This document shows, in pieces, positions 11,913 to 60,047 of a DNA stretch of 64,000 bases. The stretch comes from Flavobacteriales bacterium. GTDB taxonomy: Bacteria; Bacteroidota; Bacteroidia; Flavobacteriales_D; CAJJDF01. Location: positions 46,915 to 110,914 of the forward strand of contig JABAYJ010000005.1 of the NCBI GenBank assembly GCA_018609055.1, in the 5' to 3' direction. The notes beneath the pieces were generated by a model. It was not told where the DNA came from and searched no databases. It worked only from the letters and a program-made list of their open reading frames with translations. A program made the position numbers and the translations under genes. Position 1 is the first letter of the stretch. Every line of letters starts with the position of its first letter.

Positions 11913-12827
11913 ATGAATAAATCAACTAACATATTGCCTTCTTTTTTAAAAGTATTAATATACTTTGATGTTTTTAGATACCCGCTTACTATTATAGAAA
12001 TGAAAAGAATGGTACCTGAAAATGAAGAGGCTGATTTGGAGTTAGAGTTAGAAAAGTTGATTAAAACGCAGTTGATTTTTAAAGATGATAATCTTTATGG
12101 ATTAAATGAAGATAAAAAATATTTTACAGAAAGAAGGAAAGGAAATACAAGAGCAGAAAAGCATAAAGAGAAAGCATTTAAACGAGCAAAATTTATTTCA
12201 AAATTTCCTTACGTGAGAGGTGTATTTATTTCGGGTTCTTTTTCAAAAGGACATATGTTACCCGATGGGGATGTAGATTACTTTATAGTCACTGAGCACA
12301 ATAGAATGTGGTTTTCCAGGACTATATTAATTTTATTTAAAAAACTCTTTTTATTTAATTCAAGGAAATTTTTCTGTTTAAACTACTTTAAGGGGCAACA
12401 AGAATTAATGATTGAAGAACAAAATATTTTTACTGCCACCGAATTGTTCACTTTGATTCCAGTTGTAAATAAAGAACTTTATAAAAGCTTGATACAAGCT
12501 AATAATTGGATAGAGGATTATTTTGCTATAAGTAAGATTCCTGATAATAATGCTATATCCCTTATTAAAGGGCTTTTACAATCGATTGGAGAGAATATTT
12601 TCAATAATAAAATTGGCGAAAATTTAGACAAGTATTTCATGAAAATCACTCTTAATAGATGGAAAAATAAGTTTGGAAACATGACTAAACAAGATTTTGA
12701 TATCGCAATGAAAAGTTCAAGAAATATCTCAAAACATCATCCGAGTAATTTTCAGAAGAAGGTTCTTTCAGAATATGAAACCAAGTGTAAATCAATGATA
12801 TCAGAATATGCAAAACGTATTATTTAG
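11913..12827 (+). CDS. Pol-beta superfamily nucleotidyltransferase domain protein
   Basis: GVFISGSFSKG...DGDVDYFIV (GS-x-DxD motif) after an N-terminal helical region (YFDVFRYPLT). Confidence 0.7.
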   Translation: MNKSTNILPSFLKVLIYFDVFRYPLTIIEMKRMVPENEEADLELELEKLIKTQLIFKDDNLYGLNEDKKYFTERRKGNTRAEKHKEKAFKRAKFISKFPYVRGVFISGSFSKGHMLPDGDVDYFIVTEHNRMWFSRTILILFKKLFLFNSRKFFCLNYFKGQQELMIEEQNIFTATELFTLIPVVNKELYKSLIQANNWIEDYFAISKIPDNNAISLIKGLLQSIGENIFNNKIGENLDKYFMKITLNRWKNKFGNMTKQDFDIAMKSSRNISKHHPSNFQKKVLSEYETKCKSMISEYAKRII

Positions 12828-14271
12828 TCATAGTTATTACTACAAGATGGATCCTAAGCAATGGGATACAGGCATGCCTTATCCTCCATTGGGAACAATT
12901 TATGCGGCTAGTTTTTTGAGAGAAAATGGTTGTCAAGTAGATTTGTTTGATGTGGGACTAAGAGATTCTCCTAACGAGATTAAACCAATACTTGAGAGTT
13001 CAAAACCTAAGTTTTTAGTCCTATATGATGATGGGTTTAATTACCTAACTAAAATGTGCTTAACCAATATGCGTGAGGCTGCATTTAAGATGATAAAGAT
13101 GGGAAAAGAGTCTGGTTGCACGATTATAGTTTCAAGTTCCGATTCTACAGATCATTATAAAGAATACTTAAACAAAGGAGCTGACATTGTATTGTTAGGA
13201 GAGGGAGAAATATCTTTATTAGAAGCAATTAATAATATTAATGAGGGAAACCCTTTGGTAGATGTAAAAGGTATAGTTTTTAAAGAAGGAGAAAAAGTCA
13301 TTAATAACGGTAGGAGAGAGGTGATAAAAGATTTAGATTTTTTACCACAACCTGCATGGGATTTAATAGATGTTGATTCATATAAAAAGGCATGGACAAG
13401 TAGATTTCCATTTGCATTAAATATTGCTACAACAAGGGGTTGTCCGTATAAATGTAATTGGTGTGCTAAACCAATTTATGGGAACAGATACAACTCTCGA
13501 TCACCACAAAGAGTAGTTGAGGAGATTCAATTTTTATCTGATAAGCATGGAGTAACTAACTTTTGGATGTGTGATGATATTTTTGGATTAAAACCAAATT
13601 GGGTTCAAAAATTTGATGAAACTTTATTAGAGAACAACTTAAAAATTAGTTTTAAAATCCAGAGTAGAGCCGATTTGTTATTGAAAGAAAACAATATTGA
13701 CTCACTTGTTAGTTCGGGGTTAAAAGAAGTATGGATAGGAGCGGAGAGTGGTTCGCAAGGGATTTTGGACGCAATGGATAAGGGAACTACAATTAAGCAA
13801 ATAGAAGACTCTACAAAGCTACTTCAGCAAAAAGATGTGAGAGTTGCTTTCTTTATTCAATATGGATATTCTGGAGAAACTAAAGAGGATATTGATAAAA
13901 CTATCACTTTAATAAAAAGATGCAAACCTGATGATATTGGTATTTCGGTTTCCTACCCTTTACCAGGGACTAAATTTTATGAAGCTGTTAAAAATCAGTT
14001 GAAGGAAAAGAAAAACTGGACAGATTCTAATGATTTAGCAATGATGTTTTCGGGTACTTTTAACCAAGGTTTTTATAAAAAATTGCACAGCTACACCCAC
14101 AAAACTTTTCAGAAAACAAGAGGTTTGGATGCTTTGAAAGGATTACTAAAAAATCCTTTATCAATTAATTCATCTAAATTAAAAACTATACTTAAACTAC
14201 CAGTTTACTGGATTTTGGGTTGGAAAGAAAAGTTGGAATTATCTAAAATGGAAAACGTAAACAAAGTTTAA
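12808..14271 (+). CDS. Cobalamin-binding radical SAM protein (class B methylase-like), copy 1
   Basis: N-terminal B12-binding-type domain (YPPLG, GEGE); RGCPYKCNWC; DDIF; GAESGSQ; PLPGT. Confidence 0.9.
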   Translation: MQNVLFSHSYYYKMDPKQWDTGMPYPPLGTIYAASFLRENGCQVDLFDVGLRDSPNEIKPILESSKPKFLVLYDDGFNYLTKMCLTNMREAAFKMIKMGKESGCTIIVSSSDSTDHYKEYLNKGADIVLLGEGEISLLEAINNINEGNPLVDVKGIVFKEGEKVINNGRREVIKDLDFLPQPAWDLIDVDSYKKAWTSRFPFALNIATTRGCPYKCNWCAKPIYGNRYNSRSPQRVVEEIQFLSDKHGVTNFWMCDDIFGLKPNWVQKFDETLLENNLKISFKIQSRADLLLKENNIDSLVSSGLKEVWIGAESGSQGILDAMDKGTTIKQIEDSTKLLQQKDVRVAFFIQYGYSGETKEDIDKTITLIKRCKPDDIGISVSYPLPGTKFYEAVKNQLKEKKNWTDSNDLAMMFSGTFNQGFYKKLHSYTHKTFQKTRGLDALKGLLKNPLSINSSKLKTILKLPVYWILGWKEKLELSKMENVNKV

Positions 14272-15191
14272 AGCTGGCTAAATGCAGCAAGTTCCATTCC
14301 CCAAGCTACCCCAAGGTGAACAATAATTCCTCCGTATATATTTCGAGATTTGTAGGCTAAAACTCCTAAAGCAAATCCTCCAAAAACAGAACCAACTGTT
14401 TCCATCATTGGTTTTCCAAAATGAAGAAATGCATAACAAGCTACCATTGGTAAAATAGCATCTTTACCAACAAAGCGAGATAAAGCAACAACCATAAACC
14501 CTCTAAACAAAAGCTCTACTGATATAAAATCGAATCCATAACAAAGTTCGAATAGCCATATTTTTGTATTTTCTGATAAGCCAGATCCACTAAAATCTCT
14601 TTGATAAAAAGTAGGGTAGTAGTTCAGGAAATCTTCACCAATAGAAGCAATGAAAACTATTGGAATCATGAATAATATCATCCATAAATAAGGCTTTAAA
14701 TTTGCTCCATTTAGCCTTAAACCGTATAACTCCGGTTTAAAAAATTTAACCAAATTATAAATTATGAATATTGGTAGCATAACAGATACCAAGCTTAATA
14801 TATTAGAAACACAAGCATATAAAAAGGAATAGCTATCGCTTCCTTCCAGCAATGGTCGGATGTATTTTAGCAAATAATAGGAAGAATCAAAGGTGATGAT
14901 AGCAAGTGCTAAACCACCAAATAATAAGTATTTCCAATTATATATTATCTTTTTCTCTTTCTGGAATAGCGAAACAATAATTACTGGAACAATGAAAGCA
15001 AAAGAATACATTAACCAAAGTTTTAACAACCTTAATTCACTGTAATTAATGATTCTAAAATGATCTCCATATACTTGGTGTTCGTAATTTAAATAAATAC
15101 AAATACCAATAAATATAAGTGTAAAAAGGTGAGCAAATAAGCTAAAATCTTTTCTAAAATAATCTAAAAAATAATTAATGAATACTTTCAT
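14268..15191 (-). CDS. CPBP (CAAX/Abi) family intramembrane metalloprotease
   Basis: Multi-TM; VELLFRG, FLHFGKP, IIVH motifs. Confidence 0.8.
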   Translation of the reverse strand: MKVFINYFLDYFRKDFSLFAHLFTLIFIGICIYLNYEHQVYGDHFRIINYSELRLLKLWLMYSFAFIVPVIIVSLFQKEKKIIYNWKYLLFGGLALAIITFDSSYYLLKYIRPLLEGSDSYSFLYACVSNILSLVSVMLPIFIIYNLVKFFKPELYGLRLNGANLKPYLWMILFMIPIVFIASIGEDFLNYYPTFYQRDFSGSGLSENTKIWLFELCYGFDFISVELLFRGFMVVALSRFVGKDAILPMVACYAFLHFGKPMMETVGSVFGGFALGVLAYKSRNIYGGIIVHLGVAWGMELAAFSQL

Positions 15192-15192
15192 T

Positions 15193-15754
15193 TTATCTTA
15201 CAATTGTTAAATCTCCTTTTCTTTCTATCTCTCCAAATTATTCGGTTCCTCCTCTAAAGTAATATACATAAACACCTTCTTGTACAGGAATTCCTCTAAA
15301 TGTTCCATCCCATCCAGTATTTACATCATTTGTTTCAAATACTTTCTCTCCCCCATCTATTGTAAACAATGAATTGGAAATTAGAGAAGTTTCTACCGTA
15401 AACATATAGTTTATCATTTATTCCATCTCCATTTGGTGAGAATATTTGTGGAATAGAAGCATTAACTCTACATCCAACCAATACATCAAAATTACAAGTT
15501 GTAAAATTATTTTCTAAATCTATAGTTGTAATACTTACTGATAAGCTATTTACATCATTTAATCTAGTTGAGTAATTAATTACTGTTCCCGGTAATGGTG
15601 ATTGTATAAATGTTAATGAATCAAAAGGAGTACAATTATCCATAGCTTTTAGTGGCACAGAGTTTCCAAAGATATTCGTTTGTGAAAACGTATAGTTTGA
15701 AATAGTTAAAGCGAATAAAATAGATGTAAAATGGTATAAATACCTTTTGGACAT
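15193..15754 (-). pseudogene. Degraded T9SS type-B (gliding motility C-terminal domain) protein with HYR-like remnant
   Basis: FSPNGDGIND...YNRWG. Removing one G at 15350-15354 gives EKVFETNDVNTGWDGTFRGIPVQEGVYVYY, then an in-frame TAA (15238-15240), then FGEIERKGDLTIVR-stop. Confidence 0.8.
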
Positions 15755-15842
15755 AATTAATATTAAGTACTAAATTAATTCAAATTTGGTTGTTAAGTTA
15801 AGGTTAAAACTTTAACTGTCAACTACTATATGTTAATATCAG

Positions 15843-17093
15843 TTATTTATGTTTCTTGATTATTAAAGTAGCATTATGCCCTCCAAATCCAAATGTATTT
15901 GATAATGCATAATTAACTTCTTTTTCTTGCGCTTTATTGAAAGTGAAATTCAATTTTTCATCAAGCTCAGGATCTACTTCAGTATGATTGATAGTAGGTG
16001 GTATTATATTTTCTGTAACAGCTAAAACGCAAGCTAATGCCTCAATTACTCCAGCAGCACCTAAAAGGTGACCTGTCATAGACTTTGTTGAGCTAATGTT
16101 TAAGTTGTAAGCATGTTCTCCAAATACTTTTTGAATTGCTTTTGATTCTGCAATATCACCAAGTGGAGTAGAAGTACCGTGAACGTTAATATAATCGATT
16201 GCACTTGGCTTTATATTTGCCTCTCGAAGTGCCTCATTCATTGAATTGCGAGCTCCTAATCCTTCAGGATGTGGAGCAGTAATATGGTGTGCATCACCAG
16301 ATGCGCCACCTCCAACAACTTCTGCGTATATTTTTGCTCCTCTTGCAATTGCATGATCGTATTCTTCTAGCATCATTGCTCCAGAACCTTCTCCTAATAC
16401 AAATCCATTTCTGTTTTTATCAAATGGTCTTGAGGCTGTCTGTGGATTCTCATTGCTTTGTGATAAAGCATGCATGGCATTAAACCCTCCAACTCCTGTT
16501 TCAGTAACAGCAGCTTCAGATCCACCAGCAAGAATAGCGTTAGCTTTTCCTAATCTTATGTAATTAAAAGCGTCAATTAAAGCATTGGTTGAAGAAGCAC
16601 AAGCCGATACAGTGGCAAAGTTTGGTCCCATAAAACCATATTTAATTGAAATGTGACCCGCAGCAATATCTGCAATCATCTTTGGTATAAAAAATGGGTT
16701 GAATTTTGGTGTTCCATCTCCACTAAAAAAGTTTTCACACTCATCTTGTAAAGTTTTTAGACCTCCAATTCCTGCACCCCAGATTACACCTATTCTAGTT
16801 GTATCAACTTCCTCTAAATTCATTCCTGAATCTAATACAGCTTCATCAGCTGTAACAACAGCATACTGAGAAAATACATCTAATTTTCTTGCTTCTTTTC
16901 TGTGAAGATGATCTTCAATGTTGAAGTTCTTTATTTCACAAGCAAATTGTGTTTTGAATTTCTCGGCATTAAATTTGGTAATTTTTGCCGCCCCTGAAAC
17001 TCCTTTTTTCAAGGAATCAAAATAATCGGAAGCATTATTCCCAATTGGGGTTAATGCTCCGATTCCAGTTATTACAACTCTTTTTAATTCCAT
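15843..17093 (-). CDS. fabF: Beta-ketoacyl-ACP synthase II
   Basis: RVVITGIG, SACASS, INVHGTST, KSMTGHLLGAAG, SNTFGFGGHN. Confidence 0.97.
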   Translation of the reverse strand: MELKRVVITGIGALTPIGNNASDYFDSLKKGVSGAAKITKFNAEKFKTQFACEIKNFNIEDHLHRKEARKLDVFSQYAVVTADEAVLDSGMNLEEVDTTRIGVIWGAGIGGLKTLQDECENFFSGDGTPKFNPFFIPKMIADIAAGHISIKYGFMGPNFATVSACASSTNALIDAFNYIRLGKANAILAGGSEAAVTETGVGGFNAMHALSQSNENPQTASRPFDKNRNGFVLGEGSGAMMLEEYDHAIARGAKIYAEVVGGGASGDAHHITAPHPEGLGARNSMNEALREANIKPSAIDYINVHGTSTPLGDIAESKAIQKVFGEHAYNLNISSTKSMTGHLLGAAGVIEALACVLAVTENIIPPTINHTEVDPELDEKLNFTFNKAQEKEVNYALSNTFGFGGHNATLIIKKHK

Positions 17094-17105
17094 AGGAAGC
17101 TAATT

Positions 17106-17339
17106 TTATTTAGCGTCATTAATGAATGTTACTGCATCTCCAACAGTAGCAATCTTTTCTGCTTGATCGTCTGGTATTGCAATGTTAAATTCTTTTTCGA
17201 ATTCCATGATTAGTTCAACAGTATCCAATGAATCTGCTCCTAAATCGTTTGTAAAGTTAGACTCTAAAGTTACCTCAGATGCATCTACACCTAATTTATC
17301 TACTATAATCGCTACTACTTTATCTTGTATTTCTGCCAT
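17106..17339 (-). CDS. acpP: Acyl carrier protein
   Basis: [20 protein letters not shown]. Confidence 0.97.
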
Positions 17340-17446
17340 TTTTCTTTATTTTTTAATTGTTTAGACATTGCAAATAAAAATAATTAATTCTTATTAACCA
17401 AGTATTCGCACGCTACTTTCTTAACAAAGTCCGTTCCAAAACTTTT

Positions 17447-18187
17447 TTACGCTTTTGCTTTAATCAACTCTCTATTCATTCTTGCTATGTTATCTAAAGA
17501 TATTCCTTTAGGGCATTCTACTTCGCAAGCCCCTGTGTTTGTACAGTTTCCGAACCCTTCTATGTCCATTTGATTCACCATATTTAGTACTCTATCTTTA
17601 GCTTCAACTCGTCCTTGAGGCAGTAATGCATATTGAGATACTTTGGCAGAAACAAACAACATTGCTGATGAATTTTTACAAGTTGCAACACATGCTCCAC
17701 ATCCAATACAAGTTGCTGCATCCATTGCTAAATCAGCATCTGCTTTAGGTATTGGCAATGAATTCGCATCTTGAGTATTTCCAGAAGTATTAACTGAAAT
17801 ATACCCTCCAGCTTGTTGAATTCTATCAAAAGCTCCTCTGTCTACCATCAAATCTTTAAGTACTGGGAAAGAATTAGCTCTGAAAGGCTCAATATGAATA
17901 GTTTCACCATCTTTAAACATTCTCATGTGTAATTGACAAGTTGTTACTCTTCTATCAGGACCGTGAGCTTCTCCGTTTATGTACATAGAGCACATTCCAC
18001 AAATTCCTTCTCTACAATCATGATCAAATGCTACAGGCTCTTCTCCTTTTTCAATTAATTCATCATTAAGTATATCCATCATCTCAAGAAAAGACATGTG
18101 CCCTTCTATATTAGAAATAGGATATGTTACCATTTTACCTGGTGACTTAGCATCTTCTTGACGCCATATTTTAAGTGTTAAATTCAT
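17447..18187 (-). CDS. sdhB: Succinate dehydrogenase/fumarate reductase iron-sulfur subunit
   Basis: [28 protein letters not shown]. Confidence 0.95.
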
Positions 18188-18192
18188 ATCAA

Positions 18193-20208
18193 TTATTTAT
18201 AAGATCTTTGCTTTAACTCAATGTTTTCGTATTTCAATTCTTCTTTGTGCAGTTGTGATTCTGATGGATTTCCTTTGTATTCCCATGCCGAAACGAATGT
18301 AAAGTTTTCGTCATCACGTTTTGCTTCTCCTTTTTGAGGACCATCAATTTCAACTGACTCTTCTCTAAAGTGTCCTCCACAAGATTCTTCTCTAGTCAAT
18401 GCATCTTGAGCAAACAACTCTCCTAATTCAAGGAAATCTGCGACTCTTCCAGCTTTTTCTAGTTCTCTGTTTACTTCGTGAGTTCCACCTGGCACTCTTA
18501 CATTTTTCCAGAAATCTGCTCTTAATTCTTGAATTTCAGCAATTGCTTCTTTCAGTCCAGCTTCGTTTCTTGACATCCCAACTTTATTCCAGATAATGTT
18601 TCCAAGTTTTTTATGGAAATAATCTACTGCTTTTGTACCACCAGTATTTATTAGTTTATCTAGAGTAGTTTTCACAGAGTTTTCTGCTTCTTCAAAAGCA
18701 TCAGTATCAGTAGGTATTCTACCAGTTCTAATATCATCTGATAAATAATCACCTATAGTGTAAGGAAGTACGAAATATCCATCAGCTAATCCCTGCATTA
18801 ATGCAGATGCTCCAAGTCTATTTGCTCCGTGATCAGAGAAGTTTGCTTCTCCAATTGCGTAACACCCTTCAACTGTGGTCATTAAATTGTAATCTACCCA
18901 AAGTCCTCCCATTGTATAGTGAGTTGCTGGATAAATCATCATTGGAGTTTTGTATGGATCTTCATCTACGATTTTCTCATACATCTGGAATAAGTTACCG
19001 TATTTTGCTTCTACAATATCTTTTCCTAAATCATAAATTCTTTGAGCAGAAGCATCTTTTTCGTTATGAATTTTTGCTTGCTCTTTTCCGTATCTTTCTA
19101 TTGCTGATTTAAAATCTAAATAAACCGCTTCTCCAGTTTTGTTGACACCATAACCAGCATCACATCTTTCTTTAGCAGCTCTTGATGCTACATCTCTTGG
19201 GACTAAGTTTCCAAATGCTGGATACCTTCTTTCCAAGTAATAATCTCTTTCGTCTTCAGATAAATCTGTTGGCTTTTTCTTTCCTTCACGGATTGCCATG
19301 ACATCTTCTAATTTTGCAGGTACCCAAATTCTTCCGTCATTTCTTAGTGACTCAGACATCAATGTTAATTTAGATTGATAATCTCCAGATCTTGGTATAC
19401 AAGTTGGGTGAATTTGTGTAAAACAAGGGTTAGCAAAGAAAGCACCTTTTTTGTGCGTTTTCCATGCTGCAGTTACGTTACTTCCCATTGCATTTGTAGA
19501 TAGGAAATATAAGTTTCCGTATCCTCCAGATGCTATTACTACTGCATGAGCTGAATGTCTTTCTAGTTCTCCAGTAATAAGGTTACGAGCAATAATTCCT
19601 CTCGCTTTCCCATCTACCTTTACTATGTCCAACATTTCATGTCTGTTGTACATTTCAATTTTTCCTCTAGCAATTTGTCTGTTCATTGCAGAGTATGCTC
19701 CGAGTAATAACTGTTGTCCGGTTTGTCCTTTGGCATAAAAAGTTCTTGAAACCAATACTCCTCCAAAAGATCTGTTATCCAATAATCCTCCGTAATCTCT
19801 AGCGAAAGGAACACCTTGTGCTACACATTGGTCAATAATGTTTCCAGATACTTCTGCAAGTCTATAAACGTTCGCTTCTCTGGACCTGTAATCACCTCCT
19901 TTTACTGTATCGTAAAATAAACGGTAATTAGAATCTCCATCTCCTTGGTAATTCTTTGCTGCGTTAATTCCTCCTTGAGCCGCAATTGAATGGGCTCTTC
20001 TTGGTGAATCTTGGTAACAAAATGCTTTTACATTATATCCTTGCTCGGCAAGAGTAGCTGAGGCAGAACCACCAGCAAGACCTGTACCAATAACGATAAT
20101 GTCAATTTTTCTCTTGTTAGCAGGGTTTACTAAGTCTATTTTATCTTTATAAGTTGTCCATTTATCTTTTAATGGACCTTCTGGGACTTTTGAATCAAGT
20201 GTGCTCAT
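18193..20208 (-). CDS. sdhA: Succinate dehydrogenase/fumarate reductase flavoprotein subunit
   Basis: [41 protein letters not shown]. Confidence 0.96.
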
Positions 20209-20216
20209 AGTCTATA

Positions 20217-20900: not shown

Positions 20901-21010
20901 TTTTTGGAATTAGTTTTTTCTTTAGTAAAGTAAAAGTAACTTTTGCTTAAACTGAAAGCAAATATTAAACACAAAAATACTTTATTTATATAGATTCTTG
21001 ATAAAAACTT

Positions 21011-21018
21011 TATCTTTG
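21011..21018 (+). promoter_or_regulatory. Bacteroidota primary-sigma -7 element
   Basis: TATCTTTG matches TAnnTTTG, just upstream of ATG 21025. Confidence 0.55.
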
Positions 21019-21024
21019 GTTGCA

Positions 21025-21546: not shown

Positions 21547-21578
21547 GTAATTTGGTTTTTTGTAGATTTACTTTAATA

Positions 21579-24815: not shown

Positions 24816-24824
24816 AATTAGTTT

Positions 24825-25226: not shown

Positions 25227-25228
25227 GT

Positions 25229-42437: not shown

Positions 42438-42451
42438 GTTAACCTTGTACT

Positions 42452-48268: not shown

Positions 48269-48352
48269 GCATTTAAATATCTTGTCTTAGCTGAATAGGA
48301 ATAAATTCACTAATAATTGTTATAGTTAAATCTAACAAAGAAATAATTAGAA

Positions 48353-48843: not shown

Positions 48844-48868
48844 AGTTCAAAATAAATTTATAGAAATT

Positions 48869-48896
48869 AAAGAGGTGTTTTTACACCTCTTTTTTT
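48869..48896 (+). terminator. Rho-independent terminator overlapping the recQ 3' end
   Basis: AAAGAGGTGT...ACACCTCTTT plus T run. Confidence 0.7.
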
Positions 48897-50803: not shown

Positions 50804-50862
50804 TGCAAGGATAAAAATACGAAATGCCAATTGTTTTTTGTTCAATTGTTTCCATTCATTCT

Positions 50863-50870
50863 TATCTTTG
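50863..50870 (+). promoter_or_regulatory. Bacteroidota primary-sigma -7 element
   Basis: TATCTTTG upstream of ATG 50889. Confidence 0.55.
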
Positions 50871-50888
50871 ATAAAACAAATTTGAATT

Positions 50889-51782
50889 ATGCTTACAATT
50901 ACTCCTTCAGAGATTACCGTACCTAAATTGCATCACTATTTATTAGGAGCTGTAGGTCCTCGACCTATTGCATTTGCAAGCACCATTGATAAAGATGGAA
51001 ACAAAAACTTAGCTCCATTTAGTTTTTTCAATGTGTTTAGTGCAAATCCACCAATTATGGTGTTTTCACCTGCTCGAAGTGGACGAACTAATATCACTAA
51101 AAACACATTTGACAATGTAAAAGAAGTAGCTGAAGTAGTAATTAATATTGTGAATTATAGCATTGTTGAACAAATGTCATTGGCAAGTTCACCTTTTGGA
51201 GCTGATGTAGATGAATTTGTAAAATCGGGATTAACACCAATAGCTTCGGAAACGGTAAAGCCATTTAGAGTAAAAGAATCTCCAGTTCAATTTGAGTGCA
51301 AGGTAAACGAGGTAGTAGAGCTTGGAACCGAAGGTGGAGCTGGAAACCTTGTGATTTGCGAAGTAACTAAGATTCATATTGATGAATCTATTTTAGATGA
51401 TAAAGGAGCAATAGATCAGCATAAAATTGATTTAGTTTCTCGTATGGGAGGGAACTGGTATTGCCGAGCAAATGCCGAATCCATGTTCGAAATTAAAAAA
51501 CCAATTATGACAATTGGAGTAGGTTATGATGCTATTCCAGAAGATATTAAAAACAGTAATATCCTTTCAGGAAATGATTTAGGTAAATTGGGAGGAATTG
51601 AAGAATTACCTAACGAAACGGACGTAAACGACCACAAACTAATTGAACTAAGCGAATTGTTTGTTGATTTAGAAGATGAACAAGAAAAGCTAGAATTAGA
51701 ACTTCATAAAAGAGCCAAACAAGAACTGAAAGAGGATAAGCTAAAAGAAGCTTGGATGACGCTTTTGGCTTTTAATGAATAA
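50889..51782 (+). CDS. Flavin reductase-like family protein
   Basis: PRPIAFAST, NLAPFSFFN, ESPVQFECK, RMGGNWY. Confidence 0.88.
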   Translation: MLTITPSEITVPKLHHYLLGAVGPRPIAFASTIDKDGNKNLAPFSFFNVFSANPPIMVFSPARSGRTNITKNTFDNVKEVAEVVINIVNYSIVEQMSLASSPFGADVDEFVKSGLTPIASETVKPFRVKESPVQFECKVNEVVELGTEGGAGNLVICEVTKIHIDESILDDKGAIDQHKIDLVSRMGGNWYCRANAESMFEIKKPIMTIGVGYDAIPEDIKNSNILSGNDLGKLGGIEELPNETDVNDHKLIELSELFVDLEDEQEKLELELHKRAKQELKEDKLKEAWMTLLAFNE

Positions 51783-51841
51783 TTGTTGATAGATTGTGAG
51801 TATAGGTTTCTATTAATGATAGAAATCTAATTTTGAATTAA

Positions 51842-51849
51842 TACCTTTG
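51842..51849 (+). promoter_or_regulatory. Bacteroidota primary-sigma -7 element
   Basis: TACCTTTG upstream of ATG 51879. Confidence 0.55.
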
Positions 51850-51878
51850 TGCATCTTAAATAATATAAAAAATAAGCA

Positions 51879-52247
51879 ATGGAATTAGCAGGAAAAGTAA
51901 AAGTGATATTTGACAAACAAACGTTTGGAAGTGGATTTGAAAAAAGAGAAGTAGTAGTTACTACTCAAGAGCAGTATCCTCAAGACATTAAGTTTGAAGT
52001 GTACAAAGAAAAATGTGATATGTTGAACAACTTCGCAGTAAACGAAGATGTAACAGTACATTTTAACCTAAGAGGAAACGAATACAATGGAAAGTATTTT
52101 GTGAATCTTAACGCATGGAAAATTGATAAAGGAGCAGCAGGAGCTTCACCAGAAGGAAATGTAGTGCCAGATAATGCAGCACCATTACCAACTTCTGAAT
52201 CACCATTTGATTCTGGAAGTGATGGAGGAGACGATTTACCGTTTTAA
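51879..52247 (+). CDS. DUF3127 family protein (SSB-like OB fold with acidic tail)
   Basis: FEKREVVV, QYPQ, GNEYNGKYF, AWKI, C-terminal DDLPF. Confidence 0.85.
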   Translation: MELAGKVKVIFDKQTFGSGFEKREVVVTTQEQYPQDIKFEVYKEKCDMLNNFAVNEDVTVHFNLRGNEYNGKYFVNLNAWKIDKGAAGASPEGNVVPDNAAPLPTSESPFDSGSDGGDDLPF

Positions 52248-52272
52248 TCTAGAAATGTAAATATTGAAAATG

Positions 52273-52301
52273 AAAGGGACGATTTTATCGTCCCTTTTTT
52301 T
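52273..52301 (+). terminator. Rho-independent terminator
   Basis: AAAGGGACGAT-TTT-ATCGTCCCTTT plus T run. Confidence 0.85.
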
Positions 52302-52331
52302 GTAACTTGTTTTTTAAAATATTTATAAAAA

Positions 52332-53126
52332 TTGTCTATTAATACGTCCAATATATTTGATTCTGCAGCTGAGGCTTATGATAATACATTTACTCACTCT
52401 GTGATAGGCAAAGCGCAAAGGAAAAGAGTATATCATTGGTTGAATAAAGTTGATTTTTTTAATGAAAAAAATAAAATTTTTGAAATAAATTGTGGAACTG
52501 GATTTGATGCAGAACAAATTCACAACAAAGGATTACAAATTGTAGCGACTGATGGCTCAGGTAAAATGATAGAGGTTGCTAAAGAAGCAAGATCCACTGA
52601 GATTGATTTTTTTAAACTTCAGTTTAGTGAGGTTGCTAAGGATGAAAAATTCAAGCAAAGCACTATTTTATTCTCTAATTTTGGAGGACTAAATTGTTTG
52701 AGTAAGACTGAACTGAAAGGTTTTACTAAGGATATTGCAGAAGTTCAGACAAAAGGAGATTTAATAGCTTGGGTAATAATGCCTGATCAATGTATGATGG
52801 AATCATTTTATTTTTTACTTAAATTTAAGTTTAAAAAGGTATTCAGAAGAAAGCAGAACGAATCGTTAAAAGTAAATGTTGATGGTGTAGATGTGGAAAC
52901 GTATTACCACTCTCCATATGATTTGAAAGAGGTTTTGGGAGATAAGTACAGGGTTGAATTAACAAAACCAGTTGCTCTTTTTCTTCCGCCTTCATATTTA
53001 GAATCCTTTTTTAAAAAGAATAAATTTTTGTTAAAAGTATTAGAGTTATTAGAGAAAATGTTCGGTTGGATTTCTTTTTACTCAAACTTTGGAGATCACT
53101 ATATAATAATTGCCAGAAGACTATGA
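52332..53126 (+). CDS. Class I SAM-dependent methyltransferase
   Basis: FDSAAEAYD, EINCGTG, ATDGSGKMI, FSNFGGLNC; TTG start. Confidence 0.85.
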   Translation: MSINTSNIFDSAAEAYDNTFTHSVIGKAQRKRVYHWLNKVDFFNEKNKIFEINCGTGFDAEQIHNKGLQIVATDGSGKMIEVAKEARSTEIDFFKLQFSEVAKDEKFKQSTILFSNFGGLNCLSKTELKGFTKDIAEVQTKGDLIAWVIMPDQCMMESFYFLLKFKFKKVFRRKQNESLKVNVDGVDVETYYHSPYDLKEVLGDKYRVELTKPVALFLPPSYLESFFKKNKFLLKVLELLEKMFGWISFYSNFGDHYIIIARRL

Positions 53127-54505
53127 ATGTAATACTTACACACGGTTATTTTCTCCATGAAGATGAGAAAGAAAAGGCAATTATGCGGCCTTATCCTCCT
53201 TTGGGGATTTTATATTTATCGGGTTATTTAAAAGATAAAAACGTGAATCACGAAGTGTTTGATTCTACTTTTTCATCAGAAGAAGAATGGATTAGTTATG
53301 TAGAAGTACACAAACCAAAACTGATTGCTTTCTATACTAATTTGATGACCAAAGTGAAGATTTTGCATCTTATCGATAGATTGAAAAAATCGGATTCATT
53401 CAATGATACTAAGTTTTTACTGGGAGGTCCTGATTTAACTTATAACGTAGAAAACTACATGAAATTTGGTGCTGATTTTTTAGTAATTGGCGAAGGTGAA
53501 GAAACTTTTCACGAAACTATTTCTCAGTTTGAAGGAGACAAAGAATTTGAAAAAGTAAATGGATTGGTTTTTAAAAATGAGAAAGGAGAAATTGTAAAAA
53601 ACCCTCCTCGAGTAAAAATTAGAGATGTAAATGAGCTTTCATTTCCCAATAGAAATGCAATAGATTTATCTCAATATCTTTCTACCTGGAAAACTCATCA
53701 TGGAAAAAGCACAATAAATATATCTACACAAAGAGGATGTCCATACACTTGTAAGTGGTGTAGTACAGCTGTTTATGGGCAGAGTTATCGAAGACGATCT
53801 GCTAAATTGGTTGTAGATGAAATAGAGCAATTAATAAAAGATTACAATCCAGATGCACTTTGGTTTGTGGATGATGTTTTTACAGTGAGTCACAAATGGC
53901 TTGATGAGTTTCATAAGGAAATGACTGAAAGAAATGTGTCAATTCAATTCGAATGCATTACAAGAGCTGAAAGACTAAATGAAGAAGTGTTACAAAAACT
54001 AAAAGATATTGGTTGTTTTAGAATTTGGATAGGAGCAGAAAGTGGTTCGCAGAGAATCATAGAAAAAATGGATAGAAAGGTAGAGTTAACTACGGTAAAA
54101 GAAATGATTCAATTAACCACAAAAATGGGCATGGAATCAGGAACTTTTATCATGCTTGGTTATCCTACCGAAACAATGCATGACATTAATCTAACGATTC
54201 AGTATTTGAAAGATGCAAATCCTGATGTGTTTACCATTACAGTGACTTATCCAATAAAAGGAACTTCTCTTTATACCGAAATAGAAAAAGACATTACAAT
54301 TCAACCACCCTGGAATAATTCAACCGACAGAGAGATTGATTTTGAAAGAACTTATTCGCGTAAATTTTATGATTATGCAGTGAGCAAAGTGGTGAATGAT
54401 GTTAATTTATATAAATTAAAATCAAAAAAAGGCAACAGTAAGTCTGTCTTAAAGATGAAAGCAAAATCTATTGTTTTGGGCTCTTTAATGAAATTGAATA
54501 AGTGA
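53123..54505 (+). CDS. Cobalamin-binding radical SAM protein, copy 2
   Basis: YPPLGILYL, LGGPD, GEGEET, RGCPYTCKWC, VDDVF, GAESGSQ; start ATG 53123 in an ATGA overlap. Confidence 0.92.
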   Translation: MNVILTHGYFLHEDEKEKAIMRPYPPLGILYLSGYLKDKNVNHEVFDSTFSSEEEWISYVEVHKPKLIAFYTNLMTKVKILHLIDRLKKSDSFNDTKFLLGGPDLTYNVENYMKFGADFLVIGEGEETFHETISQFEGDKEFEKVNGLVFKNEKGEIVKNPPRVKIRDVNELSFPNRNAIDLSQYLSTWKTHHGKSTINISTQRGCPYTCKWCSTAVYGQSYRRRSAKLVVDEIEQLIKDYNPDALWFVDDVFTVSHKWLDEFHKEMTERNVSIQFECITRAERLNEEVLQKLKDIGCFRIWIGAESGSQRIIEKMDRKVELTTVKEMIQLTTKMGMESGTFIMLGYPTETMHDINLTIQYLKDANPDVFTITVTYPIKGTSLYTEIEKDITIQPPWNNSTDREIDFERTYSRKFYDYAVSKVVNDVNLYKLKSKKGNSKSVLKMKAKSIVLGSLMKLNK

Positions 54506-55626
54506 TAATGAAAAAATCATTAGTCATATTCCTACTAATTGTTTTAGTGCTTTCATGTTCTAAATCAAAGGAGACTGTCAATGATTTTTCTATCATAAAT
54601 CTTAAATGGAATCAGTCCTATTCTAGCCAAACAATTGAGGATGTAACCAAAGGACTGAACTGGACTTTATCTAATATTGGAGTTTCTTTAAAATTCTCAT
54701 CCAGTGATTATTTACAGGTTTCAAATTCTATATTAGAGTTGAATATTAAAGCCTTAAATTTTGAGTCCAATGGAAGAGAAATTCTATTAAAACTTCACGA
54801 AAGCATCTATAGTTCGGACGAATACATATTGAATAATAGTGTTGATATTGGAAGATACGTTTGTTTACTAATAGGAGCTCCAAATCACTATAATGAACTG
54901 GTTGGAGTGCCTAATTCGCTTCAAGATATTTTATCCAAATATCAATTATTACCAGATAAAGGAAAAATAAATAACTCAAGCATATCTCTTGTAGATAGAG
55001 TTATAGAGTATTCACTTCAAGAAAATGAGTTACAGTTATTATTGTCAACTGAAGTTGATTCAGCTACCAATTCTATTTATGAATTTGAGACTATAGAAAT
55101 CATGAAAAATGGTCAATTGAAGTTCGGAGTTTACGATAAAAACGGATTTCTAAAAACTGCAGCTGATGAGTCGATTACCAATGCTGGTAAAATTGCAAAA
55201 TGCATGTGGTGTCACGAAAGTAATATTGCACAATTAATAAATAGTCAAACAAACGAACCAGGATTTTTAAGTTCCTTACAACTTGAAAATACACTTCGAA
55301 TGTACAATCAAAAACTTTTCTCAAGTCAGGTTACAAGAACTAACAATGTTGTAGATTATATCAACTTGCAAGAACATACAAAAATGGAGTTGTTATACAT
55401 CTCTTTCATGAATCCATCTGCCCAGAGATTGAGTGAAGAGTGGAATATGTCTCAGTCTGATGTATTTATAAGATTAAGCTCACTAGCAAGGCATACTTAC
55501 AGTGAATTTCCTTTTTTGGGGCTACTTTACCACCGAGATGAAGTTAAAAGATACGCGCCAGTTACAGGATTAGCAGTTTCTTCAAGCGTAAGGGAGAAAA
55601 GTCTAATAGAAGTTAATCACCTTTAA
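54502..55626 (+). CDS. Lipoprotein with a single CxxCH (possible c-type heme) motif
   Basis: Lipobox VLSC; AGKIAKCMWCHE, with CMWCH at 55201-55215. Confidence 0.65.
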   Translation: MIMKKSLVIFLLIVLVLSCSKSKETVNDFSIINLKWNQSYSSQTIEDVTKGLNWTLSNIGVSLKFSSSDYLQVSNSILELNIKALNFESNGREILLKLHESIYSSDEYILNNSVDIGRYVCLLIGAPNHYNELVGVPNSLQDILSKYQLLPDKGKINNSSISLVDRVIEYSLQENELQLLLSTEVDSATNSIYEFETIEIMKNGQLKFGVYDKNGFLKTAADESITNAGKIAKCMWCHESNIAQLINSQTNEPGFLSSLQLENTLRMYNQKLFSSQVTRTNNVVDYINLQEHTKMELLYISFMNPSAQRLSEEWNMSQSDVFIRLSSLARHTYSEFPFLGLLYHRDEVKRYAPVTGLAVSSSVREKSLIEVNHL

Positions 55627-57187
55627 ATGAACTGGATAAAAACAAATAGTGTTTTTGTAATCCTACTATTCTTAGGCGTAATAGCTGTTTTCTTTTTTAA
55701 GGATTATTCTATTCATGATTTTGGCAATTATTATTTTGGAGCATATTTTTTAGGTCAAGGGGGGGGGTAATTCTGAATTATATTTCCCTCATATTTTTAA
55801 TCAAAACATTGCCCAACTCGGTTATCCCGATTTATATTTGAGCTATGCTCCCAACACTCCTTTTTTATCGGTCTTCTTTTATCCATTCACTTTTCTGCCT
55901 GCTTACTCAGCTAAAATTGTGTTTAATACTTTAAGTGTTTTATTATTCTCCTATTCAATTAATAAATGGTTTGTTAGGATTAAAATTAAGCCTCAATATT
56001 TAATTTTAATCCTTCTAATTGTAGCGATTCCTATTACCAATGGATTACTGTTTGGGCAAGTTTATTTATTATTGTTCTTTCTTCTTTCTGAAGGTTATTT
56101 CGCTTTAAAAAATGGAAACAATATAAAAGTTGCCTTGTTTTGGTCTATTGTAATTTGTCTAAAAGTATTTCCGATATTTTTGCTTTTATTCTTAATATTA
56201 AATAGGAAGTTTAGGCCATTTATTCACTCTATTGTTGGAGTTTTTATACTCTTTTTATTCAGCTTAATATTTGTAGATTTTGAAGTATGGAAATTCTATT
56301 TGATGGAGGCTCTACCTAAAGCTTTAAGTGGTGAAATTTATGCTGAATTCGTTCCTCATTATCAATCGGTAGATGAATTATTAAAACACTATTTTGTGTT
56401 TCATCCGAACTATAATCCAAATCCAATTTATGATAGTTATCCTTTGTACAAAGGAATATTGTTAGGGTTTAAATCTCTTCTTATGATGGTTGGAGTTCTT
56501 TTAGCAATTCAAAAGAAGGAGCTGCTAATCCAGTTTTGCTATTGGATATTTGCTGCAATGCTTTTTTCATCTTATGGGAGTTCCTATTCTATGATTTTAG
56601 TATTGTTTATGGCTATACTTTTATTGCAATACAACAAGGTTTTTAAGGTTCGTTCAGTGGTGTTTTTCATCTTACTTTTTTTAATGAGCAATTTGCCAGT
56701 TTCCTTATTTATAGGTTTTAATTTCCCCTTTATTAAAACCTTGTTTTATCTATCAATTCTCTTTCTTCTCTTTTTTAGAGAAATCACATTTAATAAACTA
56801 CGATATCTATTAGGTCTATCAATACTCGTCTCAATTATTATATTTGCTAAGCAGGAGAAACTAATTCCAGAGGATTATTTTACCTCAGAAAATCAACCTG
56901 GATTAATCTATGATTATGATGTCAATGAATCAGAGTTGTCAGCTAAGTATTGGAGTGTAGAAGGTGAGAAAGAATTTGTTTTCAAAGAAGCTATTAGCAG
57001 TCAGTCTATTGATAATATTGAGTTGATTGATAATCAGATTTACTATCATGGTAAGCAGATGACTTTTATTAATTCTAATAAACTAAAGCCGGTTTGTATA
57101 AATAGAAATACAATTGTTTATCTTTCAGATCAAGGAAGAGGACTTGGTTTTTATACTGTTAGAGAATTAAAAATACCTTTGAAATAA
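55627..57187 (+). pseudogene. GT87/DUF2029-like membrane glycosyltransferase, frameshifted at a G9 tract (55759-55767)
   Basis: ATG 55627, TM1 then HDFGNYY. G8 instead of G9 joins in frame to NSELYFPH...YAPNTPF...GQ...LKVFP. Confidence 0.78.
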
Positions 57188-57867
57188 TGCTAAACTATTT
57201 AAAAAACATAAGGGAGAATAGGAGGCAGAAGCAATTTTATAATAGCTTAATAAACACTAGCGACTTGTGTTTTGACATTGGAGCTAACCTTGGATTCAAG
57301 AGTAAAATATTTCTTAGTTTAGGCGCAAAAGTTATTGCGATTGAACCACAGTCAAGCTGTATTAAAGAGCTGAAAAAGATTAAAAACAACAACTTTAAAT
57401 GTTTTCAATTTGCAGTTGGTTCTAAAAATGAAGAAAAAGAATTACAGCTTGCTAATCATGTTGAAGTTGCTACATTTTCACAATCATTTATCGATTATTT
57501 TGAGACTGAAGATTTAAAATGGACTAAAACAGAAACTGTAAAGGTTAAAACTTTAGATAGTTTAATTGAGGATCATGGAACACCAGACTTTTGTAAAATA
57601 GACATTGAAGGATATGAATTAGAAGTGCTATCTGCTTTAACTAAATCTATTCCTTTGATAGAATTCGAGTTTACAGGAGGATTTATTACCGAAACCATAG
57701 AGATTCTAAATTTATTTAAAAATGACAGCTACAAATTCAATTATAACTTAAATGAAAAACCTAAATTTGAGATAAGTGAATGGATTAGCTCTCAAAAGAT
57801 GATTGATATTATAAACTCTCTTCAAAAAGAAAGACTTCACGGAAACATTTTTGTAAAAAGTAAATGA
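57187..57867 (+). CDS. FkbM family methyltransferase
   Basis: FDIGANLG, AIEP, TLD, KIDIEGYELEVL. Confidence 0.92.
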   Translation: MLNYLKNIRENRRQKQFYNSLINTSDLCFDIGANLGFKSKIFLSLGAKVIAIEPQSSCIKELKKIKNNNFKCFQFAVGSKNEEKELQLANHVEVATFSQSFIDYFETEDLKWTKTETVKVKTLDSLIEDHGTPDFCKIDIEGYELEVLSALTKSIPLIEFEFTGGFITETIEILNLFKNDSYKFNYNLNEKPKFEISEWISSQKMIDIINSLQKERLHGNIFVKSK

Positions 57868-59384
57868 AAAATAAAATAATCATATTCAATCCCAGAAGTG
57901 CTAATGCAAAGCATAGAATTCCTAATTCTATACTTCAAGTTGGAGCATCCATCCATGGTAAGTTTGAGTACGTTTTTGTAGATGGTAATTTAGAGAAAGA
58001 TCCATTTGAGACTATTGAAAACTATTTTAAAACAGGCGAATTTAAATATTTCTGTTCTACTGTAATGCCTGGTCCTCAGCTTCAACAAGCTATTCCTTTT
58101 ACAAAAAAAATCAAAGAACAATTTCCAGATTCAATAACAGTTTGGGGTGGATATTTTGCTGCTAACCAATATAAGGTTTCAATCAATTCTGGATATGTAG
58201 ATTACATTGTAACTGGACCAGGTGATGTTGCTTTCCCCTCTTTAATTGGAGCTTTGGAGGAAAATAATGTAGAAGAGATTCCTAAGATTAAAAACCTTAT
58301 TTACTTAGAAGAGAATAAAACAATAACGAAGACTGCAAAAGAAGCTTTGTTAAATCAAGATAAATTACCTGATTTACCTTACGAATACCTTAATGAGTTT
58401 TATCCGTTAGAGGGTTATTTGTCTAAAACATTCATGGGTAACAAAACGTTTTCATACCACTCAAGTATTGGATGTCCTTTTTCTTGTTCTTTTTGTGCAG
58501 TTGTGCCTATTTATAATGCAAGGTGGCAAGGGAAATCAGCAGAGTCTATTTATAAAGATGTTAAGTTTTTTAAGGATAAATACGGTATTGATGCGATAGA
58601 ATTTCATGATAATAACTTTTTCACTTCTCGTAAAAGAGTAATGGCTTTTTGTGAATTGGTAAAGGATGATGGAATCCAATGGTGGGGAGAAGGAAGAATA
58701 GATACATTAAATAAATATTCGGATGAGGAATTACAACTGATGCGTGAAGCAGGTTGTAAAATGATATTCTTGGGAGCAGAGACAGGAAATGATGAAGTTC
58801 TTAAGCAAATGAATAAGGGAGGGACTCAAACAGGAGCAATGATTGAGGAGTTTGTATTAAGAATGCGAAATGCTGATATTATTCCTGAATTATCTTTCGT
58901 TTTAGGATTACCATTAGAAACTGAACAAAAAGTATTTGATCAAATAAATTGGGATATCAATTTTATTAAAAAGATTAAAAAAATAAACCCTGAGGCTGAG
59001 ATTATTATTTATTTGTACAGTCCAGTGCCAACCGAAGGATCAGAATTATATAAAACGATTACCGAAGCAGGATTTAATTTCCCTGAGAGATTAAAAGATT
59101 GGATTTCTCCAGTTTGGGAGAATTTTGACTTAAGAAAAAATCCACTTACACCTTGGTTAACCCCAAGAATGATTAGTAGAATTAAGAATTTTGAAACAGT
59201 ATTAAACGGAGTTTTTCCTACTGTATCAGATTTTAGAATTACTAAGTTTAAAAGAGCAATAGTTAGAACAACAGCTGTTACAAGATATAAATTGGGATGG
59301 TATGCATATCCATATGAAATTAAAGTATGGCTTAGATTATGGAAGTACCGCCAGCCAGAAATTGAAGGGTTTTACACAGAATAA
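57864..59384 (+). CDS. Cobalamin-binding radical SAM protein, copy 3
   Basis: VWGGYF, GPGD, GCPFSCSFC, HDNNFF, GAETG, YSPVP. Confidence 0.9.
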   Translation: MKNKIIIFNPRSANAKHRIPNSILQVGASIHGKFEYVFVDGNLEKDPFETIENYFKTGEFKYFCSTVMPGPQLQQAIPFTKKIKEQFPDSITVWGGYFAANQYKVSINSGYVDYIVTGPGDVAFPSLIGALEENNVEEIPKIKNLIYLEENKTITKTAKEALLNQDKLPDLPYEYLNEFYPLEGYLSKTFMGNKTFSYHSSIGCPFSCSFCAVVPIYNARWQGKSAESIYKDVKFFKDKYGIDAIEFHDNNFFTSRKRVMAFCELVKDDGIQWWGEGRIDTLNKYSDEELQLMREAGCKMIFLGAETGNDEVLKQMNKGGTQTGAMIEEFVLRMRNADIIPELSFVLGLPLETEQKVFDQINWDINFIKKIKKINPEAEIIIYLYSPVPTEGSELYKTITEAGFNFPERLKDWISPVWENFDLRKNPLTPWLTPRMISRIKNFETVLNGVFPTVSDFRITKFKRAIVRTTAVTRYKLGWYAYPYEIKVWLRLWKYRQPEIEGFYTE

Positions 59385-60047
59385 ATGAGAGCTTTTATAA
59401 AAAAAATATCTCATCCATTTCTTAAGTTTCTGTTTAATAAATACCACAGTAAACCCAGAGAATATTCATACAAAGATGTCTCGGTTTTGGTTCATCCAGA
59501 TGTTTTCCCACCACACTTTACAATTAGTACAAAGATTTTATTGGACTTTATTAATGAGCTTGATTTAACTAATAAATCTATATTAGAACTAGGTTGTGGT
59601 TCTGGTATTATTTCTTTGTTTGCAGCCTCTAAGGGAGGAGTTGTAACAGCAAGTGATATAAATCCAACAGCTATTGATTTTTTAAATACAGCAGCCAGTA
59701 AAAATGAGCTAAAAGTTAATGCTTTATTCTCTGATTTATTTCAGAATATTTCACAAAAAGAATTCGATTATATTATAATTAATCCACCTTATTATCCCAA
59801 GAATCCTTCAGAAATGAAAGAGAGAGCTTGGTTTTGTGGAGAGGATTTTATCTATTTCGAAAACCTGTTTTTACAATTGATTGCATTTATTCCAAATTCT
59901 AGTGTTTTAATGATACTCTCAGAAGATTGCGAGATTGAAACAATTAAGGCGATAGCAAGTAAAAATAAACTTGAATTTTTGAAAGTGCACGAGACAAAAG
60001 TTTCGTTTGAACGGAATTTTATATTTTCAATTACAAAAACAGACTAA
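59385..60047 (+). CDS. HemK/PrmC-like small SAM methyltransferase
   Basis: PDVFPP, LELGCGSG, SDINP, SDLF, INPPY. Confidence 0.85.
   Translation: MRAFIKKISHPFLKFLFNKYHSKPREYSYKDVSVLVHPDVFPPHFTISTKILLDFINELDLTNKSILELGCGSGIISLFAASKGGVVTASDINPTAIDFLNTAASKNELKVNALFSDLFQNISQKEFDYIIINPPYYPKNPSEMKERAWFCGEDFIYFENLFLQLIAFIPNSSVLMILSEDCEIETIKAIASKNKLEFLKVHETKVSFERNFIFSITKTD

Follow-up and report, generated by a model that had tools for sequence, protein, structure and literature searches.

Two separated loci as probable parts of one conserved cobalamin-type radical SAM cassette in the Flavobacteriales

Do two gene clusters that lie some 38 kb apart in one bacterial chromosome, each with genes for cobalamin (B12)-type radical S-adenosylmethionine (SAM) enzymes, belong to a single system? 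The question is raised by a 64,000-nucleotide stretch of DNA from a Flavobacteriales bacterium (GenBank assembly GCA_018609055.1, contig JABAYJ010000005.1, positions 46,915 to 110,914 of the forward strand), referred to here as the window. A sequence-only reading had proposed that one ancestral cluster with three radical SAM (rSAM) genes was split by rearrangement. We consider it likely, with good confidence, that loci 1 and 2 are two parts of one conserved cassette that tailors a surface glycan, cut between the rSAM gene A and the methyltransferase gene MT25. The nine genes concerned, mapped from an open reading frame (ORF) listing and from Pfam and NCBIfam scans of the window proteins, are the following.

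11913..12827, + strand: nucleotidyltransferase (NTase), locus 1; PF01909, E 1.1e-5
12808..14271, + strand: rSAM-A (A), B12-type radical SAM, locus 1; PF04055, E 6e-18
52332..53126, + strand: MT25, class I SAM methyltransferase, locus 2; PF13649
53123..54505, + strand: rSAM-B (B), B12-type radical SAM, locus 2; PF04055 and PF02310, both above cut-off
54502..55626, + strand: lipoprotein with an invariant CXXCH, 374 residues, locus 2; no Pfam or NCBIfam family
55838..57187, + strand: GT87-family (GT-C type) membrane glycosyltransferase, locus 2; PF09594, E 3.9e-18
57187..57867, + strand: FkbM-family methyltransferase, locus 2; PF05050 and TIGR01444, above cut-off
57864..59384, + strand: rSAM-C (C), B12-type radical SAM, locus 2; PF04055, with PF02310 below cut-off
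59385..60047, + strand: MTS/HemK-like methyltransferase (MTS), locus 2; PF05175, E 2.6e-17, NPPY at residue 133

Gene order and enzymes of the cassette

The family-less gene at 54502 was used as a probe of public genomes and returned 80 loci, a sample that is conditioned on carrying the probe gene and that includes short contigs unable to hold a whole cassette. The sequence-only reading had called for a search for genomes in which the orthologues of genes 11913, 12808, 52332, 53123, 57864 and 59385 are contiguous, and 44 of the 80 loci hold all six in order on one strand. An uninterrupted same-strand run of NTase-A-MT25-B-lipoprotein is present in 54 of the 80, and of the 60 loci with both A and B, 56 separate the two by under 1.5 kb. 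In other Bacteroidota the genes usually run NTase-A-MT25-B-(variable glycosyltransferase and methyltransferase genes)-C-MTS; placed end to end, loci 1 and 2 of the window give this common operon order, with the cut exactly between A and MT25. The nine-gene order of the window is itself reproduced in L055 and L061 (we number loci with L and genomes with G). In most of the 80 loci the GT87 gene comes after the lipoprotein gene, the lipoprotein gene sits between B and GT87 in most cassettes, and the FkbM methyltransferase gene is immediately 5' of C in 14 of the 80.

A second sample consisted of 60 relatives (48 outside the genus and 12 congeners), which were searched with each rSAM, all candidates being scored, and window proteins were then placed onto the fetched regions. 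Of the 48 genomes outside the genus, the 10 with an orthologue of A are precisely the 10 with one of B and one of C, at identities of 52-65%, 52-61% and 60-70%, respectively, so that the two loci are not independently distributed, and their orthologues do lie side by side. A-MT25-B is contiguous in 9 of these 10 cassette-bearing genomes of other genera in the order, with an A-B gap of 0.77-1.3 kb that has MT25 inside; in G043 the gap is 19.7 kb. NTase-A-MT25-B is found in order in 7 of the 10, and G041 and G051 have A-MT25-B with no NTase match at the threshold used. C-MTS lies 1.8-8.9 kb from A in 9 of the 10 and, in G027, C sits on another contig. C is paired with MTS in every fetched region, and MTS, its constant partner, adjoins it in 11 of 11 genomes compared. 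The MT25 family is likewise present in all 11 and sits between A and B in other genomes, and the NTase adjoins A in nearly all cassettes.

In the window, 38.9 kb separate the end of A from the start of B, and the six cassette genes NTase, A, MT25, B, C and MTS are all present and intact. Most locus 2 genes abut or overlap their neighbours: MT25/B, B/lipoprotein and FkbM/C overlap and C/MTS abut, while at locus 1 the last 20 bases of the NTase gene overlap A. The start taken for B (ATG 53123, overlapping the MT25 stop) fits the homologues better than an upstream TTG at 53066. The G+C content of both loci is 0.29-0.32, versus 0.33-0.36 in the flanks.

From their sequences we infer that A, B and C are putative class B (cobalamin-binding) rSAM enzymes. 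The radical SAM core PF04055 is above cut-off in all three, and the CX3CX2C cluster motif is at residue 212 in A, 206 in B and 204 in C. The B12-binding domain PF02310 reaches 51.5 bits in B against a cut-off of 32.1; A (20.9 bits) and C (24.0 bits) match it at the right position, below the cut-off. The best NCBIfam matches of the three all belong to B12-rSAM families. A and B are identical at 133 of 423 residues (31%, E 5e-77), versus 24% for A and C (E 2e-20) and 25% for B and C (E 3e-20), and C is indeed the more divergent third copy that had been suspected. The motifs that the sequence-only reading had given as common to A and B (SHSYY/THGYF, PYPPLG, RGCPY.C.WC...YG..Y..RS, W..DD.F, WIGAESGSQ.I...MD, YP..GT..Y and W..S.D) are all visible in the alignment, but its description of the two as close paralogues was overstated. 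A tree of 43 sequences puts A, B and C into three distinct clades (branch supports by SH-aLRT of 99, 98 and 100), each holding one member per cassette-bearing genome, next to a fourth clade, D, that has no window member. Since these one-member-per-genome clades run across several families, the duplications must be older than the divergence of the families sampled. In a whole-genome search, A, B and C were mutual best paralogues, and no second A-type gene was found with A as query. A fourth, distant rSAM match (E 5e-7 to A) was seen on another contig at G000:C8:52863-53411, in an open frame of 640 residues.

Named families were considered for the three enzymes and rejected. Scores for BchE (TIGR02026, anaerobic Mg-protoporphyrin cyclase) are 158 bits for A, 159 for B and 115 for C against a cut-off of 481, and the "anaerobic cyclase" names in public records can therefore be put down to automatic annotation. 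The P-methyltransferases PhpK and Sden_1168 give 102-132 bits against cut-offs of 575-600, and all scores for HpnJ, HpnR and MgmA are far under the cut-off.

Two further cassette proteins were modelled. The NTase model (mean predicted local distance difference test score, pLDDT, 88.7) has an N-terminal winged helix, a Pol-beta-type NTase core and a helical C-terminus, and the residues G108, S111, D120 and D122 (G-S...D-x-D) are invariant in 30 homologues. The lipoprotein at 54502-55626 has a lipobox-like N-terminus and a CMWCH motif, which as KCMWCHE is invariant in 24 homologues; its model (pLDDT 88.1) has cytochrome c', c'-beta and P460 folds as its top three matches, all weak (Z 5.5-6.5), and the protein is a candidate haem protein of the periplasm. 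For both the NTase and the lipoprotein, ESM Atlas returned only unnamed Bacteroidota clusters.

Distribution and tree histories of the parts

A third sample, of 400 genomes drawn evenly from the phylum, bears on how the parts depend on one another. Here only 3-4 candidates per genome were scored, so absences may be overcounted, kin in the sample are not independent of each other, and six C matches at 35-37% identity may represent another subtype. A-type orthologues were found in 45 of the 400 genomes (about 1 in 9), B-type in 14 and C-type in 27; all 14 genomes with B and all 27 with C also have A. The 45 A-bearing genomes comprise 9 with A, B and C, 5 with A and B only, 18 with A and C only and 13 with A alone. 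Linkage is close in this sample as well, with B at most 3 kb from A in 10 of 14 genomes and C at most 10 kb from A in 22 of 27. Eight further loci show that A can lack B and C and still have the NTase and an MT25-type methyltransferase beside it, G151 being the one without MT25. A and the NTase are thus the hub of the cassette, and B and C are optional additions. Within the genus, too, the genotypes are A only, A+B, A+C and A+B+C. At the other extreme, locus L044 of a genome from another class (G184, 6956-16758) contains four successive B12-rSAM genes (A, D, B ... C) and three methyltransferase genes, its D gene appearing split into two frames.

Several results weigh against the reading of the two loci as parts of one glycan-tailoring cassette. 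A occurs without B and C in 6 of 12 congeners and alone in 13 of the 45 A-bearing genomes of the phylum sample, a count that may be inflated by the 3-4 candidates scored per genome; A lacks B, C or both in 36 of those 45, and the idea of the three rSAMs as one obligatory system did not survive. The congeners G003 and G004 carry Wzz-Wzy_C-NTase-A-CPBP (the outer genes are described below), and MT25, B and C were not found in either, so locus 1 may be functional by itself, or in decay. No curated NCBIfam cut-off is reached by A, B or C. The fold matches of the NTase are weak: they are aminoglycoside and lincosamide nucleotidyltransferases, of which the aminoglycoside enzyme ANT(4') is best with Z 7.8 over 109 residues; Foldseek gave nothing at E 0.001 or better (matches had E of at least 0.011), and a sequence comparison with solved structures gave no match at E up to 1. 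At the window's two loci we could identify neither a substrate nor genes for nucleotide-sugar synthesis or an initiating transferase. The remaining evidence on this side is phylogenetic. For the 11 genomes holding A, B and C, maximum-likelihood trees were compared by Robinson-Foulds (RF) distances and approximately unbiased (AU) tests, and the congruence of the three rSAM trees that the sequence-only reading had looked for was not obtained. The trees share one clade only, (G016,G027,G051). Out of 16, the RF distances come to 14, 14 and 12 (shuffled labels average about 15.4), and fractions of 0.23, 0.23 and 0.06 of the shuffles, respectively, fall at or below the observed values. Each alignment rejects the topologies of the other genes (AU p at most 8e-4), the log-likelihood differences on the other topologies being 159 and 176 for A, 56 and 57 for B and 94 and 73 for C. 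The AU rejections and the single shared clade indicate that the cassette parts were not inherited as a single block: the cassette is a recombining mosaic.

Surface-polysaccharide loci often behave as recombining mosaics. Three random relabellings, at a cost of 115-279, nevertheless gave a worse fit than the topologies of the sister genes. Two allele types of the NTase exist within the genus, with 35-38% or 52-55% identity to the window's (L028, L031, L038 and L040), and the A genes that adjoin the two types are 74-88% identical. This pattern suggests a recombination breakpoint between NTase and A.

How the two loci came apart

The surroundings of the two loci, in the window and in congeners, bear on when and how the cassette was cut. 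The features between and beside the loci are the following.

14268..15191, - strand: CPBP intramembrane protease, PF02517; genus-specific right-hand neighbour of locus 1, which marks the break
15192..52247, no strand assigned: housekeeping block of about 37 kb between the loci
52248..52331, no strand assigned: left junction of locus 2, the terminator hairpin of DUF3127 and then MT25
60048..60083, no strand assigned: right junction of locus 2, the promoter-like spacer of a glyoxalase-family gene

The approximately 38 kb between the loci are housekeeping DNA that is syntenic across the genus, with Pfam matches to FabF, SdhCAB, CvpA, PorZ, TrpRS, a PurN-like formyltransferase, YebC and KdtA as well as a TonB receptor, RecQ, a flavin reductase and DUF3127. 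The intervening genes and their order are conserved in G006 and G008, where a single contig carries both A and, 34 kb away, the flavin reductase gene. In G001, G003, G006, G008 and G010 the DUF3127 and glyoxalase-family genes are adjacent and the locus 2 site is empty; the empty spacer of G010, of 131 bp, is similar in sequence to the window's right junction. These empty spacers mean either that locus 2 is a 7.8-kb insert at this site or that its absence reflects precise loss. In the closest genome, G002 (A 88% and C 93% identical), both junctions of locus 2 are the same as in the window: the left flank is nearly identical, with two differences over the stretch compared, and the right spacer has the same sequence. 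The separation of A and C is therefore seen in two independent assemblies and is not an assembly artefact. Between DUF3127 and C, however, G002 has a fused methyltransferase gene and a SPASM rSAM gene in the place of MT25-B-lipoprotein-GT87-FkbM, so the left part of locus 2 is interchangeable. The fused gene (L029, 7019-9779 together with the SPASM rSAM gene) encodes a 525-residue protein in which a "FAM4" methyltransferase is joined to an unknown part.

The CPBP gene, which is convergent with A, is the immediate neighbour of A in G002, G003 and G004; G010 has MT25-B next to CPBP instead. G006, G001, G008 and G011 have NTase-A-MT25'-second methyltransferase-CPBP, which is the common order minus B. 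In G010, MT25-B is directly downstream of CPBP and the contig ends inside B; the tail of a GT87-like gene in convergent orientation lies 1.8 kb beyond A, where that contig stops. The contig ends suggest that an inverted MT25-B...GT87 block has stayed at locus 1; the assembly of G010, which is 88% complete, lacks the lipoprotein gene and most of GT87. The B genes of G010 and the window are 75% identical, and the A genes of the two 72-75%, an equal divergence that fits the residence of both in the ancestor of the genus. No tRNA was found in the window's intervening DNA or junctions, the intervening genes that were subjected to a Pfam scan include no transposase or integrase, and no notable flanking repeat was seen at the locus 2 junctions, where there are only short, low-identity repeats typical of AT-rich DNA. 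The simplest history is that the right-hand part relocated within the chromosome.

The strongest alternative, which we consider unlikely but by no means negligible, is that locus 1 is a vertically inherited, eroded remnant (NTase-A only) and that locus 2 is a partial cassette acquired separately into the DUF3127/glyoxalase spacer, where it complements the remnant. The site of locus 2 is empty in 5 of 5 other congeners examined, its left part differs between the window and G002, and the histories are mosaic by the AU tests. Bootstrap values of 100 and 77 place the window's C and MTS with those of G053, the window's A falling outside a clade with 100% support that contains G053; and C is 73-76% identical to most Flavobacterium-record loci against 66% to G013 of the same family, an excess that A does not have. 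A similar discordance of A and C is, however, common to Salibacteraceae-labelled loci and so is not specific to the window's genome. The B gene of G010 is the sister of the window's B (75%, SH-aLRT 99), with the same divergence as A, and its position beside CPBP, the flank gene of locus 1, fits a B that is resident in the genus and moves within the chromosome. There is also no integrase, tRNA or flanking repeat at the junctions, and G+C is equal in the two loci. Of the earlier proposal, then, the single conserved cluster stands, and its splitting by rearrangement remains the simplest history, beside a smaller chance of separate acquisition. The relocation itself is ordinary genome rearrangement, which shows that the cassette parts need not be co-transcribed.

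Two other features of the intervening region may be recorded. Directly after PorZ, at 28867-33783, three large genes encode proteins of 532 residues (no family), 605 residues (borderline PMT_2, GT-C) and 484 residues (no family), and may be extra envelope glycosylation genes separate from the cassette. Near locus 1, a small CHU_C sorting-domain protein (15335-15754) and PorZ (26455-28824) are features of type IX secretion, whose cargo in Bacteroidota is attached to a surface glycolipid; a link of these features with the cassette product is conceivable.

Predicted product and comparison with known systems

The presence of extracytoplasmic glycan-transfer genes at both loci, noted in the sequence-only reading, was borne out: GT87 is at locus 2, and locus 1 begins with two genes upstream of the NTase.

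9493..10467, + strand: Wzz-type chain-length determinant, locus 1; PF02706, E 8.9e-10
10457..11887, + strand: Wzy_C/O-antigen-ligase-like membrane protein, locus 1; PF04932, E 6e-22

Orthologues of Wzz adjoin the cassette in G013, G043, G027, G003 and G004, and a Wzy_C gene is found near it in at least five other genomes. Other glycan genes near the cassettes of relatives encode a flippase, glycosyltransferases of family 4 (GT4), a Wzy_C-Bac_transf fusion, GT2, PMT_2, a carbamoyltransferase and a protein with a weak GDSL-family match, and these cassettes also hold several extra SAM methyltransferases. A flippase and Bac_transf are found only in the congeners' versions of locus 1 and not at the window's two loci. 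Genes of the kinds that are extra in relatives (methyltransferases, GDSL, GT4, SPASM rSAM, PMT_2 type and carbamoyltransferase) were not found elsewhere in the genome at E 1e-5. The cassette probably decorates a cell-surface sugar polymer.

That the product is something else, such as a methylated lipid, a phosphonate or a modified peptide, with the glycan genes as mere neighbours, seems to us improbable. The best NCBIfam matches of A and B, all far under cut-off, do include the lipid enzymes HpnJ and a ladderane-type rSAM, the P-methyltransferases PhpK and Sden_1168, and methylases of ribosomally synthesized and post-translationally modified peptides, and the nearest solved structure is that of a protein methylase, MgmA (9ccb, E 1e-15). 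Against this, GT87, GT4, PMT_2, Wzy_C, Wzz, flippase and carbamoyltransferase genes recur in or beside the cassette in many lineages, no precursor-peptide gene was noticed in the cassette ORF maps, which were read without a dedicated small-ORF search, and the genome, which is 100% complete, has no phosphoenolpyruvate (PEP) mutase above cut-off (PF13714 gave only sub-threshold matches), so that a phosphonate pathway was rejected.

The same 100%-complete genome, with its three cobalamin-type rSAMs, yielded no CbiC or CobS. Any cobamide would therefore have to be imported, and the organism is probably auxotrophic for B12, with a cassette that relies on uptake from outside.

The data directly show that the genes are homologous, how they are ordered, where they co-occur and at which point the cassette is broken; the chemical steps that follow, including the successive action on one substrate suggested by the sequence-only reading, are what we infer for the surface-glycan cassette. 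The NTase would probably nucleotidylate a precursor or make a nucleotide-linked one, and A would act first on the NTase product. B and C would carry out class B radical SAM chemistry, most likely the methylation of unactivated carbons, as optional modifications, and the ordinary SAM methyltransferases would add further optional groups. GT87, Wzy_C and Wzz would then transfer or assemble the product outside the cytoplasm, onto a surface polymer of a Wzy-type pathway. Since B and C were found only in the presence of A, their distribution predicts this order of action. Because all genes are intact, the physical separation of the two loci need not impair function.

Least probable of all is that the loci are functionally independent, with NTase-A and Wzz/Wzy_C serving one glycan, locus 2 another product and the kinship of the rSAMs only historical. 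Genomes with A alone, with A+B and with A+C do occur, the presence of B is statistically independent of that of C among A-bearing genomes (9 with both against 8.4 expected), and the trees are incongruent. Against this reading, neither B (14/14) nor C (27/27) was ever found without an A that is itself in only 45 of 400 genomes, MT25-B is translationally packed straight behind A in most genomes, and the window's genome has no second A-type gene for locus 2 to work with.

If the cassette decorates surface glycans, class B rSAM chemistry would enter polysaccharide biology and surface structure would become linked to B12 supply. A wider proposal, which we put forward as possible but doubtful, is that B12-dependent radical carbon methylation, or related radical chemistry, might be a widespread means of surface-glycan diversification in Bacteroidota, in which NTase-A would be first and obligatory, B and C add-ons, the genotypes within this genus serotype-like, and expression in this B12-auxotrophic marine bacterium tied to the cobamide supplied by other microbes. 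The genotypes of the congeners are natural "knock-outs" with which genes could be matched to chemical groups of the glycan.

Among known systems, the closest parallel in logic is fosfomycin biosynthesis, where the class B rSAM Fom3 methylates an unactivated carbon of a nucleotidylated substrate, 2-HEP-CMP (PMC8158854). Fom1, with its cytidylyltransferase domain, and Fom3 thus pair a nucleotidyltransferase with a class B rSAM, as is predicted for the cassette. The pairing is likened by description, and the differences are clear: here the context is glycan assembly, no PEP mutase exceeds the cut-off, and the NTase is Pol-beta/ANT-like with a winged helix. There is also no Fom3 model among the NCBIfam matches of A and B, and both are far under the cut-offs of the PhpK family. 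GenK-type class B rSAM C-methyltransferases act in aminoglycoside pathways. Compared by description only, they have a B12-binding domain and an rSAM core, the architecture predicted for A-C, and GenK acts on sugars; GenK, however, works on small-molecule antibiotics, whereas the window has three paralogues in the context of a Wzy-type surface polysaccharide. Gentamicin is listed among class B rSAM substrates in PMC8158854.

By sequence, the solved structure nearest to A is MgmA (PDB 9ccb; E 1e-15 over residues 124-403), an identification that we take from the occurrence of the code 9ccb in the MgmA paper (PMC11796369). MgmA, the glutamine C-methyltransferase of methyl-coenzyme M reductase (MCR), has the B12-rSAM architecture that is predicted for A, but its substrate is a protein, A scores 108 bits against a TIGR04014 cut-off of 360, and the organism studied here, a Flavobacteriales bacterium, has no MCR. 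Neither "polysaccharide" nor "glycan" turned up on a term search of a 2026 review of B12-rSAM enzymes (PMC12931638). Our literature search turned up no description of the cassette.

With the Wzx/Wzy modules of O-antigen and capsule loci the cassette has in common its low G+C, the presence of Wzz and Wzy_C, and a glycosyltransferase and methyltransferase content that varies between species of a genus. The allele replacement of such modules is visible here as well, in NTases that are 35% versus 52-55% identical beside A genes that are 74-88% identical. We know of no described O-antigen or capsule locus that uses a cobalamin-type rSAM. The cassette would be an undescribed variant of class B rSAM tailoring chemistry in a glycan context.

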